Below are positions 4,003 through 50,831 of a stretch of DNA of 64,000 bases, one piece after another. A model generated the notes under the pieces. That model was not told where the DNA came from and made no database searches. It saw only the letters and a program-made list of their open reading frames with translations. Within the stretch, counting starts at the first letter, position 1; each line of letters opens with the position of its first letter. Origin of the DNA: Thermoplasmata archaeon (GTDB lineage: Archaea; Thermoplasmatota; Thermoplasmata; Lutacidiplasmatales; UBA184); NCBI GenBank assembly GCA_030037875.1, contig JASHPV010000007.1, positions 10,041 through 74,040 of the forward strand, written 5' to 3'. A program made the translations under genes and the position numbers.

Positions 4003-5000
4003 ACGCCCTGCTTCGACGCCGTGCTCAGGAAGCGGATGTCGACCTTCTCGACACTCGCGATGTGACTTCGGATCGGCGCCCGGAAGCGAAGGAGTCGCTT
4101 GGAGGGGCCCGGTACGGTGCCGTGGACGAGGACGCAGCTCGAGCGGACCGAGCCGTAGTGGAGGTACCCGCCCTTGGGAGTGATGACGTCAATCTTCGGG
4201 TCGTGCACGATCTTCAGCAGCCGGATGTTGTAGACCGTTCGCTTGTGGTAGCCCATCTGACCGGCCTGCGGAATACGGTACGTCACGAAGCTCGGGTTGT
4301 GGGGTCCCAGGGTCCCGATCATCCGGCGGTGTTTCGAGTTCTTGTGCGGCTGGAGGTGCACCCCCCACCGTTGGATGTGCCCTTGGAATCCCTTGCCCTT
4401 GGTGACGCCGATGAGGTCCCAGAATTCGCCCTCTTTGGCGATCTGGTCGATGGTAACTTCTTTGCCGAGCTGGCTGAGTGCGAACGACCGACGGTCCTCG
4501 ACGGCTTCGCCCGAAACCCGGACCTCGAAGATGTCGGGGGTCTTGGATCCGACGCCTGTCACCAACCACGGCTCGGTGTGGGCGATCAGACGAACGTCGT
4601 CGGCCGGGGCGCTCCGGAAAGCCTCGAGCTTCGAGGGCTCCGTGGCCGGGTGCCGCGGGATGACCCGGTCGACCTCATCGTGGGTTTCCTCGGCCCATGC
4701 CTCCCCTACGACACGGCTTCCGTACGGATCGTCCCGATAGAGTCGGGCGCCGACCACGTGGATGGGTGGGGTTTCGATCACGGTGACCGGTACCGACACT
4801 TCTTGCCCGGCCGTGGTGGAGCGCTTTCGGTAATCCACGATGAACGCGTGAGTCATGCCGACCTTGAAGCCGGCGAACCCCTCCAGGGACGGCTGTTTGG
4901 GGCCGGGAGGCCAGGTACGGACCCTAGGTACACTACGCGACGAGCGAGAACGGGGGGAGTAGCCGAGCGAGCCTCGGCGAGGTCGGTGTCGGCGGGCCAT
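3999..5000 (-). CDS. rpl3: 50S ribosomal protein uL3
   Basis: Internal start MARRHRPRRGSLGYSPR... (ATG 5000..4998) in ORF 3999..5063. Conserved FKVGMTH..., GKGFQG. First gene of the operon. Confidence 0.93.
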   Translation of the reverse strand: MARRHRPRRGSLGYSPRSRSSRSVPRVRTWPPGPKQPSLEGFAGFKVGMTHAFIVDYRKRSTTAGQEVSVPVTVIETPPIHVVGARLYRDDPYGSRVVGEAWAEETHDEVDRVIPRHPATEPSKLEAFRSAPADDVRLIAHTEPWLVTGVGSKTPDIFEVRVSGEAVEDRRSFALSQLGKEVTIDQIAKEGEFWDLIGVTKGKGFQGHIQRWGVHLQPHKNSKHRRMIGTLGPHNPSFVTYRIPQAGQMGYHKRTVYNIRLLKIVHDPKIDVITPKGGYLHYGSVRSSCVLVHGTVPGPSKRLLRFRAPIRSHIASVEKVDIRFLSTASKQGV

Positions 5001-5050
5001 CGATTTGGAGCGTCTTTCGCCTCCGGTGGGGGCGGGGGAGAAGGGTGCCC

Positions 5051-5058
5051 TATTTAAG
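5051..5058 (-). promoter_or_regulatory. Candidate TATA box (TTAAATA on minus strand) for the r-protein operon
   Basis: Plus strand reads ccctatttaagcgc, so minus strand reads gcgcTTAAATAggg. Lies ~50 nt upstream of the uL3 ATG, consistent with an archaeal TATA plus a short leader. Confidence 0.35.
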
Positions 5059-5230
5059 CGCAACCCAGAAGCCGATTGCGCATCTCTCCGGCACGCGATT
5101 CTCCCTCTGAGAATTCCTTGTGAACGCGCTCGTGCTCGGACGCGCGCGTAGAGAAAACCGGCCCCGCGACGCGGCGACCGGCAGGCCCGGCCCCCCGAAT
5201 GGTTAAGGCCCTGCGGGGGGAGCCGCCGTT

Positions 5231-6466
5231 GTGTCGGACCCGCTGGAAGTCCGCTTGGAGGATGTTGGCGCGGCGGCGCAGCGGATCCTGGGGGTAGTTC
5301 GTCGCACCCCGTTGATCGAAGCGCCTCCGATCCCTGGGCTTCCGGCGACGGGCGTTTACCTGAAGCTCGAAAATCTGCAACCCATCGGCGCCTTCAAGCT
5401 GCGCGGCGCCGCGAACAAGATTCTCTCGCTCTCTTCGGAAGAAGCCGCGCACGGCGTGATCGCCGCGTCGTCCGGAAATCACGCGCAAGGGGTGGCTTAC
5501 GCCGCCCGCTACCGGGGCATTTCCGCGACCATCGTGATGCCCCGCGGGGCGTCCCCTGCCAAGGTCAGCGCCACGCGGGCGCTCGGGGCGCGAGTAGTGT
5601 TCCATGGTGGGGATTTCGAGGAGGCCGACGAGGAGGCCCTCCGGCTTTCGAAAGCGGAGGGTCTGGTGTACGTCCACCCCTTCAATGATCCGGCGGTGAT
5701 CGCGGGCCAGGGGACCGTCGCACTGGAGATTCTCGAGGACCTGCCGAAGACCCGGCGGATCATCGCGGGAGTGGGTGGGGGCGGGCTCTTGGCAGGCATC
5801 ACGGTCGCCGCAAAGGAGATGGACCCGGCGGTGGAGATCGTCGGGGTTCAATCGGCGGGGGCCGACACTCTCCGGGCGTCGATGGAACAAGGCCGAGTGG
5901 TGGTCGGGGGAGGCCCGAAAACGTTCGCCGATGGTTTGGCGACCCGGAACATCGGAGACCTGCCATTCCGGATCTTCCAGCATTTCGGCATCAAGGCGTT
6001 CAGTGTGGACGACCGCTCCATCGCGAGGTCCGTGTTCTTGCTGCTCGAGAACGCGAAGTTGCTGGCGGAGGGAGCCGGGGCGGCGCCGTTGGCGGCCGCA
6101 CTCGCGCACCCCGAGATCCTCCAAGACGGCCCGACCGTCCTCGTGATCAGCGGTGGAAATCTCGACATGCTCCTCCTCGACCAGATCCTTCGGGTGGGTC
6201 TGTCCACCGAAGGACGGCTACTGCGAATCCGCGCGCCGTTACGGGACAAGCCGGGGCAACTGGCCGAGCTTCTCGGTGTCGCGGCCGGCCACTCCGCAAA
6301 TGTCCGGCAGATCCTCCACGACCGGGAATCCTCCGGCCGGTCACCCGGGGAGGTGACCGTGGAGGTCGAACTCGAGGTACGGGATGCCGCGCACGCCTCC
6401 GAGGTTCTCCAGGCGTATCGAGACAAGGGTTGGAACGTGGTCCGCGTGACGGTTGGCGATGTTTAG
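5231..6466 (+). CDS. ilvA: Threonine ammonia-lyase (threonine dehydratase), PLP-dependent with C-terminal ACT-like domain
   Basis: GTG start. PLP-lysine motif GAFKLRGA, SSGNHAQG, G-rich loop GVGGGGL. ~90-aa C-terminal regulatory domain. Confidence 0.85.
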   Translation: MSDPLEVRLEDVGAAAQRILGVVRRTPLIEAPPIPGLPATGVYLKLENLQPIGAFKLRGAANKILSLSSEEAAHGVIAASSGNHAQGVAYAARYRGISATIVMPRGASPAKVSATRALGARVVFHGGDFEEADEEALRLSKAEGLVYVHPFNDPAVIAGQGTVALEILEDLPKTRRIIAGVGGGGLLAGITVAAKEMDPAVEIVGVQSAGADTLRASMEQGRVVVGGGPKTFADGLATRNIGDLPFRIFQHFGIKAFSVDDRSIARSVFLLLENAKLLAEGAGAAPLAAALAHPEILQDGPTVLVISGGNLDMLLLDQILRVGLSTEGRLLRIRAPLRDKPGQLAELLGVAAGHSANVRQILHDRESSGRSPGEVTVEVELEVRDAAHASEVLQAYRDKGWNVVRVTVGDV

Positions 6467-8669: not shown

Positions 8670-8933
8670 ATGCGGTTCGGATGGGCGTATTGGCTCCTGG
8701 GAACGCTCCTTGCCATCACCGCGGTGATGCTGGTACCGTCGATACTGATCTCCGCATACAGCGCGGTCCCCCCGCTCCCGTGGACGTTCCTCGCCCTCTA
8801 CGGAACGGTCGCGTTCCTCTGCGCCCTCGGTGCGGCGCTCCTCCTCCGCAGAGGTCGGGTTCTTCTTCACGCGGATTCCATCATCGGTTTAAAGAGCGGG
8901 CACGACGATGAGAGCCGCGGGCCTGTAGCTTAG
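8670..8933 (+). CDS. Small two-TM membrane protein (hypothetical)
   Basis: 87 aa with two hydrophobic helices. Its 3' end overlaps the tRNA 5' end by 16 nt, which lowers confidence. Confidence 0.3.
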   Translation: MRFGWAYWLLGTLLAITAVMLVPSILISAYSAVPPLPWTFLALYGTVAFLCALGAALLLRRGRVLLHADSIIGLKSGHDDESRGPVA

Positions 8934-9027
8934 CTGGGACAAAGCACTGGCCTTCTAAGCCAGCGAACTCGGGTTCAAAGGCCGGCGGGAAGTGATCTTC
9001 CTTTCGGCGGAAACTCCCGACAGGCCC
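8918..9027 (+). tRNA. tRNA-Arg (anticodon TCT) interrupted by a ~35-nt intron in the T-loop (position 59/60 or 60/61)
   Basis: Hand-folded. Acceptor GGGCCTG/CAGGCCC is 7/7 WC. D-stem GCTT/AAGC. Anticodon stem CTGGC/GCCAG with loop CTTCTAA. T-stem TCGGG (8968-72) pairs CCCGA (9015-19) only after skipping 8979/80..9013/14. A14, G18G19, A21, U33, G53, C61 are present. Confidence 0.6.
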
Positions 9028-9036
9028 GCTCGCCCG

Positions 9037-49167: not shown

Positions 49168-49341
49168 ATGATCGCGCGCGCGGACCTCCGGTGCACCTCG
49201 TGTGGCCGGGGCTTGACCGCTCCCGGAGCGACGGCGTTTCTCTGTCCGTCCTGCGGCATCGAGACCATCGGACGCGATGCCCGGTGCCGGGACCAGAGCG
49301 TGCCGTACAAGTGCACGAACTGCGGCTTCGTGGGTCCCTGA
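49168..49341 (+). CDS. Small zinc-ribbon protein (conserved partner upstream of aEF-1beta)
   Basis: 57 aa: MIARADLRCTSCGRGL...FLCPSCGIE...CRDQSVPYKCTNCGF. Confidence 0.6.
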   Translation: MIARADLRCTSCGRGLTAPGATAFLCPSCGIETIGRDARCRDQSVPYKCTNCGFVGP

Positions 49342-49356
49342 CCGGTGAGGCGCACG

Positions 49357-49622
49357 TGGGCGAAGTCGTGGTACTGTTCCGCCTGATGCCTCACGGCGTC
49401 GAGACGGACATGAACGCCCTGGCCGCCGGGGTCCAGCGCGCCGTGCCGGAGGGCGTCAAGATTCGAGGGATGCAGATCAAGGACGTGGCGTACGGGCTCA
49501 AGTCGTTGCTCGTCGCGGCGGCGATGCCCGACGCGGGCGGGGTCCTCGACCGGTTCGAGGAGGCTCTCGCCAAGGTATCCGGGGTCGAGTCCGTCGAGGT
49601 CATGGAAGAAAGCCTGGTGTAG
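49357..49622 (+). CDS. Translation elongation factor aEF-1 beta
   Basis: GTG start giving MGEVVVLFRLMPHGVETDMNALAAGVQ...GVESVEVMEESLV (~88 aa), the typical aEF-1beta pattern. Confidence 0.85.
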
Positions 49623-49955
49623 TCGCCCTCGGGGACGCGTGCTCGCGGTCCCGTACGGGCAGTTTCTCGAGGCGTATCTCCTCGCTTACGGGACCGTGGG
49701 GTACGGGCCTTGACACCTGGCCGCCGGAATCCGGGTCTCCCTCGCTCCCAACGGAACGGCGTGCACGAAGTCGTCGTAGCTCAATCCCAGCACCTGGACA
49801 GAGGGGTTCGCGGAGAGGCTCGTGCCGGCCTCGGCGCGGCGCTCGGAACACCTCGCAAACCCTTTTCTCCCGAGTTACTCTGGTTCGCGCGCGGCCGGGA
49901 TGGGGTAGTCTGGCCTATCCTGGGGGACTGTGGATCCCTCGACCCGGGTTCAAAT

Positions 49956-49980
49956 GGGGACGGGGACACCCCCCGTCCCC
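49956..49980. other. Perfect 10-bp stem hairpin GGGGACGGGG-acacc-CCCCGTCCCC in the intergenic region between convergent genes
   Basis: Read directly in the sequence. Lies ~20 nt beyond the stop of the minus-strand HAD gene and inside the tRNA-like region 49890..50000. Confidence 0.3.
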
Positions 49981-50000
49981 GGAGAGTCTCGGTCCCGGCC

Positions 50001-50831
50001 CTACTTCTTTCCTCGGCCCGGCCGCGGGGTCCGGCGAGTGGATTTCCGTTCGATCTTTTCGAGAGCCTCGGGGAGGTGGGACAGCGATGGGTCGGCCCAG
50101 GCAGCGCCCCATTGCTCGAGGTCCTTGGGCGTGAGCGCCCAACCCGGTAGGCTCGAGGCCCGACCGAGGGCCGTTACGCCCGGAACGGAGGAGGCGGCCT
50201 CCATATCGAATCGCGAATCCCCGACCAGGAAAATCGGAACGCCCGGGAACCGGCGCCGATATTCGGCGAGATGCTCCCGCTTCGTCCCTTGGCCCGCGCC
50301 GAGAACCGCCTCGAACCAGTATCGGATGCCTTCCCGCTCGAGGAGCAGGTCCGCGATCTCTTTCTCGGCCCCGGTGGACACGACGAGCGTCCACTTGTCC
50401 TGGGACAGCCGCTTCAGCACCCGAGGAATCTCGGGGAATGGATGTGCTGTGCCGTACGCCTCCTTCGCCTTCCGCTGGTGGAATATTCGGGCGACCTTGT
50501 GCCGCTCGACGGCGGGCACATCCGGGTAGAGCTGGGCGAGTTGCGCTTCGAAGGGCAGTCCCGTGGTCGCCAGGTAATGGATCCGTGCCTCGTCGGCCGG
50601 CGTCCCGAACGCCTTCGTCATCACATCCGCGGCCACTTCGCTGATGTGGTTCAGGTCGTCCAGGATGGTGCCGTCCAGGTCGAACACGACCACGCCCCGG
50701 GCGACCTTTCGCGGCTCCGGCAAAGGTTCCTCCGGGAGGGGAGAGGGTTCCGGCGTGTCGAGGGATTTGTTCGCTAGAACCGGCAACGGGATGACCGGTT
50801 CGTTCTCCATCGGAGAAGGCTCCGGGGCCAT
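50001..50831 (-). CDS. HAD-superfamily hydrolase with Pro/Glu-rich N-terminal extension
   Basis: Motif I VVFDLDGTILDD, motif IV LVGDSRFD. Internal ATG 50831 (MAPEPSPMENEP...) of ORF 50001..51050. Confidence 0.75.
   Translation of the reverse strand: MAPEPSPMENEPVIPLPVLANKSLDTPEPSPLPEEPLPEPRKVARGVVVFDLDGTILDDLNHISEVAADVMTKAFGTPADEARIHYLATTGLPFEAQLAQLYPDVPAVERHKVARIFHQRKAKEAYGTAHPFPEIPRVLKRLSQDKWTLVVSTGAEKEIADLLLEREGIRYWFEAVLGAGQGTKREHLAEYRRRFPGVPIFLVGDSRFDMEAASSVPGVTALGRASSLPGWALTPKDLEQWGAAWADPSLSHLPEALEKIERKSTRRTPRPGRGKK

Follow-up and report, generated by a model that had tools for sequence, protein, structure and literature searches.

Introns with a BHB splice motif at position 59/60 of the T-loop have been documented in ARMAN-2 (PMC3239211), which stands with Methanopyrus kandleri and Hadesarchaea among the recognised euryarchaeal exceptions, all tied to special features of EndA (PMC5829648). 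Reviews otherwise describe euryarchaeal tRNA genes as carrying introns at the canonical position (37/38) only (PMC4090602). The strict form of the motif, hBHBh', consists of two 3-nt bulges with a 4-bp helix between them, and BHB motifs in T-loops have been noted (PMC6379350). Non-canonical introns are modelled by tRNAscan-SE 2.0 (PMC8450103); with this program, tRNAs for "all 20" amino acids were reported from Lutacidiplasmatales MAGs, introns not being commented on (PMC9287336). No description of T-loop introns in Thermoplasmata was found in the searchable literature. Here, we describe a tRNA gene from a Thermoplasmata archaeon that carries an intron at exactly this position. It lies in a window of 64,000 nt, the whole stretch of DNA analysed, with a G+C content of 59-69% (66% for the full 64 kb). 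Between aEF-1β (Pfam EF1_GNE, 49356-49622, stop codon 49620-22) and a convergent HAD gene, whose stop codon occupies 50001-03, neither an ORF scan nor a reading of the interval found a credible ORF, in agreement with an earlier sequence-only reading of the same DNA. The tRNA-like motifs listed in that reading were all recovered when we read 49200-50500: the D-arm motif GGGGTAGTCTGG (49902-49913), an anticodon-like arm, GGCCGGG (49893-99), CCGGG-TTCAAAT (49944-49955), CCCGGCC (49994-50000) and the hairpin GGGGACGGGG-acacc-CCCCGTCCCC (49956-49980). We conclude that 49893-50000 (+) is a functional tRNA-His(GUG) gene with a single 32-nt intron at 59/60 (table 1), and put the probability of this at roughly 0.93.

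Table 1. Features of the tRNA-His gene, its predicted splice motif and the upstream spacer (window positions)
Feature	Position	Strand	Remark
G-1	49893	+	Genome-encoded, opposite C73
Acceptor stem GCCGGGA / UCCCGGC	49894-49900 with 49993-49999	+	
U8	49901	+	In exon 1
D arm	49903-49921	+	In exon 1
Anticodon arm GGGGA-CTGTGGA-TCCCT	49923-49939	+	GTG (GUG) at 49930-32; 7-nt loop, 5-bp stem
Variable loop, 4 nt	49940-43	+	
T stem CCGGG / CUCGG	49944-48 with 49988-92	+	One G·U pair, G52·U62
T loop UUCAAA (U54-A59), plus U60	49949-54, plus 49987	+	
Discriminator C73	50000	+	Pairs with G-1
Exon 1	49893..49954	+	Manual parse; ARAGORN His(gtg) cloverleaf once spliced in silico
Intron, 32 nt	49955..49986	+	tRNA position 59/60
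Exon 2	49987..50000	+	U60, CUCGG, UCCCGGC, C73
BHB helix h (exon-exon), the T stem	49944-48/49988-92	+	5 bp, constant in relatives
BHB central helix H, 5' strand U54 U55 C56 A57	49949..49952	+	
BHB central helix H, 3' strand GGAG	49981..49984	+	
5' bulge AAU (A58-A59-U)	49953..49955	+	Predicted cut after A59, 49954/49955
3' bulge AGU (A-G-U60)	49985..49987	+	Predicted cut before U60, 49986/49987
Helix h', 10 bp with 5-nt loop	49956..49980	+	Pairs 49956-65 with 49971-80
YdjM-family membrane protein gene relic	49629..49842	+	N- and C-terminal pieces joined; in-frame stop in N-terminal piece
Putative BRE/TATA-like box AAACCCTTTTCT	49857..49868	+	-36 to -25 from G-1

For 49893-50003, RNAfold predicts a cloverleaf whose T arm is extended (-66.2 kcal/mol, z = -2.4), and once 49955-49986 is deleted in silico ARAGORN returns a regular tRNA-His cloverleaf with the T-loop UUCAAAU and the pair G-1:C73. 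The sequence-only reading had held that the pieces would not assemble into a single cloverleaf, a fold that it missed probably because the 3' half of the T stem reads CTCGG and not CCCGG. Its suggestion of a tRNA-His(GTG) with a non-canonical intron, like the T-loop intron of tRNA-Arg, proved right, while the multi-intron, split or degenerate gene that it also considered becomes superfluous: one 32-nt intron at 59/60 suffices when CTCGG, with G52·U62, is accepted. The exons are colinear and 32 nt apart, unlike those of a split or permuted gene. The two identity elements for histidine, G-1:C73 and the GUG anticodon, are present, G-1 and C73 being unchanged in 85/85 aligned sequences (among the matches listed). 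As encoded, exon 2 lacks a 3' CCA. The HAD stop codon (CTA on the + strand) directly adjoins C73, so the 3' UTR of HAD must be antisense to the tRNA. Most relatives likewise have CTA after C73, and eight have CCA (among the matches listed), which may be an encoded CCA end.

The relatives came from two sources. A protein search with aEF-1β gave 80 loci, nearly all from MAGs named "Thermoplasmata archaeon", two of them titled "Ca. Lutacidiplasmatales"/"Ca. Lutacidiplasma silvani"; isolate and sample names suggest that these MAGs are of soil origin. In 13 of the 80 loci a tRNA-His gene lies 86-2521 nt downstream of aEF-1β, 12 copies being complete and one (locus L050) cut by the contig end. A 33-nt exon-1 pattern matched at least 120 metagenome contigs from soil or peat, of which 4 of 120 are incomplete at contig ends. 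Among the matches listed, an insert of 29-32 nt sits at 59/60 in 116/116 complete metagenome copies, and not one intron-less tRNA-His occurs among the complete copies (12 MAG loci and 116 contigs). For comparison we used 108 distinct pre-tRNAs, taken from 12 Thermoplasmata MAGs and more than 100 metagenome contigs among the matches listed. They comprise 11 near-identical exon variants as against about 100 intron sequences (among the matches listed). Exon changes among these listed matches are confined to D-loop positions 16, 17 and 20a/b, position 9 and the compensated pair 7:66, where A-U has become G-C by change of both sides in loci L059 and L185; G18, G19, A14, A21, the anticodon loop and the T-loop are constant in all 108. 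The same exons recur nearly unchanged while the introns vary yet conserve their structure, an ensemble that lies far beyond chance.

This pattern bears directly on where the 3' half of the T arm is placed. One could read the gene with two introns, the first at 49956-49977, followed by a micro-exon CCCGG (49978-82) and a second intron of ~10 nt (49983-49992). The attraction is that the micro-exon would pair perfectly, by Watson-Crick pairs only, with CCGGG, the 5' half of the T stem, and that ARAGORN likewise takes this region as the 3' end. In relatives, however, 49978-82 is unconserved (GCTGT, CCCTG, TTCCA and others) and behaves as intron, whereas CTCGG at 49988-92 is identical in 108/108 (among the matches listed); moreover, a BHB is impossible for a 10-nt intron, and one intron already yields the full cloverleaf. 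We regard the two-intron gene as highly improbable. What ARAGORN itself reports on the raw sequence is a tRNA-His(gtg) at 49894-49984, right in identity but wrong in fold: an uninterrupted 91-nt tRNA with a long variable arm and with the G/C hairpin as T arm. This output is what recommends the model, which turns the real T arm, CCGGG-TTCAAAT, into a "variable arm", takes as "T loop" an ACACC that lacks the T-loop consensus and varies freely in relatives, opens its acceptor stem with a G·A pair, and excludes the constant segment 49987-50000 even though this is perfectly paired with 49893-49900, the compensatory change at 7:66 included. Such a tRNA has next to no likelihood. Our own scan also offered a 56-nt intron that would lead to a 3' exon at 50011-50023; this alternative was rejected as it is absent from relatives and falls within the HAD coding tail.

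The splice motif of the single-intron gene has the architecture expected of a BHB, with one departure. Two 3-nt bulges lie on opposite strands, 4 positions apart (49949-52, 49981-84), between flanking helices h and h'; joining 49954 to 49987 restores a canonical tRNA; and exons are conserved while the intron varies except in its pairing (108 distinct pre-tRNAs, among the matches listed). Helix H pairs as U·G, U-A and C-G, then ends in an A·G mismatch beside the 5' bulge, such that a strict 4-bp H is absent from the window (3 bp plus mismatch) but found in 65/85 relatives. Because its fourth H pair is this mismatch, the window copy is best described as a mildly relaxed BHB and not a strict hBHBh'. 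According to reviews, relaxed motifs are poor substrates for α4 and α'2 endonucleases, which are the types to be expected in Euryarchaeota (PMC6379350, PMC5829648), and this counts against our reading insofar as the motif of the window is slightly relaxed. Pair counts were made on alignment A2, which holds 85 sequences with 32-nt introns, and a smaller set agrees. In the proposed structure 96.7% of cells are paired, versus 28-68% after the partners have been shifted by 1-3 columns, and 0/500 shuffles reached the observed value on any of five measures (85 sequences). Helix h' shows changes on both sides in 7/10 of its pairs and is paired in 90.9% of cells, and the partners in helix H change only in ways that keep pairing: U54 faces G or A, U55 faces A or G, and C56 always faces G. 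Opposite A57 there is a U in 65/85 sequences and a mismatch (A·G or A·A) in the other 20/85, the window among them. Thus, the majority form among relatives is the strict hBHBh', with the clade of the window carrying a mildly relaxed one.

Energetically, the BHB register is disfavoured, at -27.4 versus -32.8 kcal/mol for the MFE (T arm plus intron, nearest-neighbour); as is usual for a motif recognised by a protein, it is comparative evidence that argues for it. The MFE register of RNAfold pairs U54-U55-C56 with 49984-86, and was discarded given that 49986 varies among relatives (G/C/A/T). Among the matches listed, the 108 relatives have G (75), T (17), A (10) or C (6) as first intron nucleotide, ACU (72), AGU (24) or others (12) as 3' bulge, and chiefly UGAG (59), GGAG (23) or GGAA (11) as 3' strand of H. 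Since the first intron nucleotide and the middle nucleotide of the 3' bulge vary while U60 is constant, the register and the cut sites appear fixed, and U60 (49987) was assigned to exon 2 on the same contrast. By the established rule, EndA cuts after the second nucleotide of each BHB bulge; the pattern of conserved nucleotides agrees with a cut after the second nucleotide of the 5' bulge.

The 10-bp hairpin had been singled out as perfect and terminator-like, possibly the mark of another structured ncRNA. It is indeed perfect; yet by itself it is unremarkable because inverted repeats of 10 nt or more with a short loop occur 27 times in the 64-kb window, and what counts is its position and conservation. 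Read apart from the tRNA, the hairpin or the whole interval might serve as an aEF-1β/HAD terminator or as a separate structured ncRNA, a notion prompted by a perfect G/C hairpin that sits between convergent genes. Archaeal termination relies on oligo-T tracts and not on hairpins. Right after the hairpin, the + strand lacks a T-run (GGAGAGTCTCGG, GGAGAG) and the - strand offers only ATTT (ATTTGAACCC). The hairpin lies inside the tRNA transcription unit, 334 nt past the aEF-1β stop, and its pairing is conserved while its sequence is not, as befits helix h' of a BHB. Against a distinct ncRNA, no Rfam family gives a credible match at this locus, either in a scan of the window at the gathering threshold or in one of 49500-50150 at E<=10, where the weak matches at E 1-8 are chance and none reaches E<1. 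We give a separate element scarcely any credence, and regard the hairpin as the intron's own h' helix. The Rfam tRNA model (RF00005, gathering threshold 29 bits) does not match the tRNA-His gene either, even at E<=10. The sequence-only reading would have counted silence of the covariance models against a tRNA; silent the tRNA model is, but that yardstick would have misled, since the miss of the unspliced gene is explained by the 32-nt insert in its T-loop.

The remainder of the 378-nt interval is of another nature: the suspected RNA gene holds for 49893-50000, whereas 49623-49892 consists of a protein-gene relic and a putative promoter. In many relatives, a gene for a YdjM-family protein (PF04307) of ~328 aa stands between aEF-1β and tRNA-His (4289-5275 in locus L041, 4287-5277 in locus L007). 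Blastn aligns the window colinearly with L007 in three pieces, 49664-49727 with 4306-4369, 49721-49792 with 5183-5253 and 49858-49892 with 5319-5353, and the translation of 49666-49761, LEAYLLAYGTVGYGP*HLAAG, is identical to residues 8-39 of the L041 protein at 15/32 positions with an in-frame stop. Colinear pieces and broken translation together imply that about 810 nt have been deleted from within the YdjM gene of the window. The gene is also missing from loci L003, L004 and L006, with spacers of 240, 86 and 87 nt, respectively; it is intact in L041 and seems frameshifted in L007, where two ORFs (4287-~4730 and 4732-5277) are seen. Two spacer ORFs, of 83 aa (- strand, 49600-49851) and 146 aa (+ strand, 49710-50150), were rejected as genes because the spacers of L004 and L006 measure only 86-87 nt and the sole homology in the spacer is to the frame-broken YdjM relic. 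Several public assemblies of apparently the same species, among them the contigs L201 and L202 with identical aEF-1β, break within ~140-320 nt after aEF-1β, in the YdjM relic/tRNA region, a pattern that may come from differences between strains in whether they carry the YdjM gene. Immediately upstream of aEF-1β, a small HVO_2753-like zinc-finger protein (PF07754; 49165-49338, +) overlaps the long-ORF frame of aEF-1β. On the other side of the tRNA, a near-copy of its 3' end (C-CTCGG-CCCGGCC) is found 10 nt downstream, at 50011-50023, in the C-terminal codons of HAD; as it is absent from relatives, it is probably due to chance. Closer to the tRNA, when the 50 nt upstream of the gene are compared across 105 distinct relatives (among the matches listed), strong conservation is confined to the box at 49857-49868, with the consensus AAacCTTTTct. 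Its position and composition are those of a putative archaeal BRE/TATA promoter, and would suggest a very short 5' leader for the tRNA.

The decayed DNA of the spacer invites the thought that the tRNA is itself dead: a pseudogene of a disrupted tRNA-His, or a tRNA-like end left at a former integration site, with a working tRNA-His elsewhere. The near-copy of the 3' end and the mismatch in helix H in the clade of the window could be taken in the same sense. Nonetheless, 108 distinct sequences (among the matches listed) show strong purifying selection on the exons, turnover of the intron is compensated, the putative promoter box is conserved and the identity elements are all intact, while the near-copy belongs to the HAD codons and has no counterpart in relatives. 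A dead gene is thus very unlikely, and we retain a functional tRNA-His interrupted by one intron.

Maturation of this gene can be sketched as follows. Transcription from the BRE/TATA-like box, about 30 nt upstream, would give a 108-nt precursor in which the T stem, CCGGG/CUCGG, forms helix h; U54-A57 would pair with the intron tail GGAG as helix H, A58-A59-U and A-G-U60 would be the bulges, and the 10-bp G/C hairpin the inner helix h'. Cleavage by EndA would be expected at the sites predicted in table 1, two nucleotides into each bulge, and the exons would then be joined by the RtcB ligase, restoring UUCAAAU at the predicted junction ...GGGUUCAAA|UCUCGG.... The product would be a standard 73-nt cloverleaf plus the encoded G-1 paired to C73, with CCA added post-transcriptionally. 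A tblastn search with an approximate M. jannaschii EndA query found no EndA gene in the window or in the fetched loci. The T-arm BHB probably copies the geometry of the 37/38 intron in the anticodon arm, since both introns follow the sixth nucleotide of a 7-nt loop on a 5-bp stem.

The tRNA-His gene is not alone in the window. tRNA-Arg(UCU), at 8919-9028 (+), has a 35-nt intron (8980-9014) at 59/60 of the T-loop, with an H helix UUCA:GGAA (3 bp plus A·G), a 3' bulge ACU and an h' helix starting GCCG/CGGC. tRNA-Ala(GGC), at 15711-15607 (-), carries the identity pair G3·U70 and a 33-nt intron (15653-15621) at 59/60, with H UUCA:GGGA and a 3' bulge AAU. A T-loop intron at 59/60 is accordingly seen in 3/3 tRNA genes of the 64-kb window, none being uninterrupted. 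RF00005 scores tRNA-Arg at 35.5 and tRNA-Ala at 29.1 bits solely because the T arm is dropped in a false alignment; in tRNA-Arg, CGGGUUCA is mis-assigned as the 3' strand of the acceptor. A probably essential gene, that of tRNA-His, escapes the Rfam tRNA model, and ARAGORN misplaces its 3' end and draws a "long variable arm" that does not exist. In MAGs of this group, tRNAs could hence seem to be missing unless a BHB-aware tool is used. Across 1.41 Mb of fetched loci, the real 59/60-intron tRNAs are copies of tRNA-His only; further calls (L013, L058, L152, L108 and others) fell in coding sequence or had implausible stems and were dismissed.

It is tempting to generalise from the three tRNA genes of the window and the 116/116 listed copies of tRNA-His, all with an intron at 59/60. 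T-loop introns may be the rule in a soil group of Thermoplasmata that includes "Ca. Lutacidiplasmatales", served by an EndA that is tolerant or has been independently broadened; we hold this only tentatively, and think it rather less probable than not. If true, a lineage of euryarchaeal grade would systematically place its tRNA introns in the T-loop. Pairing with the universally conserved U54-U55-C56-R57, such introns would in principle be movable between tRNAs. The EndA of the lineage would either tolerate the relaxed A·G or have acquired a broader specificity on its own, separately from the (αβ)2, ε2 and loop-bearing α4 enzymes. The natural intron variants, more than 100 among the matches listed, provide in any case a covariation map of the BHB features that are retained: C56-G is always kept, the fourth H pair can be dispensed with, and the 3' bulge is free at its middle nucleotide.

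How, then, does this gene compare with described systems? It shares with ARMAN-2 the insertion point 59/60, short introns and a BHB-type motif that uses the T arm (PMC3239211), and both hosts are placed in or near Euryarchaeota. The hosts are nevertheless unrelated (here, soil Thermoplasmata with 66% G+C), the tRNA is another one (here, His), the intron sequences are unrelated, and ARMAN-2 has a special ε2 endonuclease of broad specificity. With the canonical 37/38 intron (Marck & Grosjean 2003, as summarised in PMC6379350 and PMC4090602) it has in common a 5-bp stem h, a 4-position H between the first four loop nucleotides and the 3' tail of the intron, 3-nt bulges and a hairpin h', and the same enzymes, EndA and RtcB, are expected for both; the canonical motif, on the other hand, sits on the anticodon arm, whereas that of tRNA-His sits on the T arm and has an A·G mismatch as fourth H pair. 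Methanopyrus kandleri and Hadesarchaea are likewise lineages of euryarchaeal grade with non-canonical tRNA introns (Kaneta et al. 2018, PMC5829648). M. kandleri differs in position, with an HBh' intron in the D-loop of tRNA-Glu, and no link to Thermoplasmata is reported there (PMC5829648). In Thermoproteales (Sugahara 2008 and Chan 2011, cited in PMC8450103 and PMC4090602), several tRNA genes likewise have BHB introns at sites other than the anticodon loop, and standard tRNA finders miss or misfold such genes; these often hold two to three introns at many positions and are served by an (αβ)2 endonuclease. The lineage described here differs in having one intron per gene, always at 59/60, in 3/3 genes seen, and in being of euryarchaeal grade. 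It adds an exception to the canonical-only 37/38 introns of Euryarchaeota (PMC4090602). The tRNA-His locus is neither a new class of RNA nor a split gene; it is a known kind of archaeal gene interruption, here in a soil Thermoplasmata lineage where the review-level literature would not lead one to expect it.
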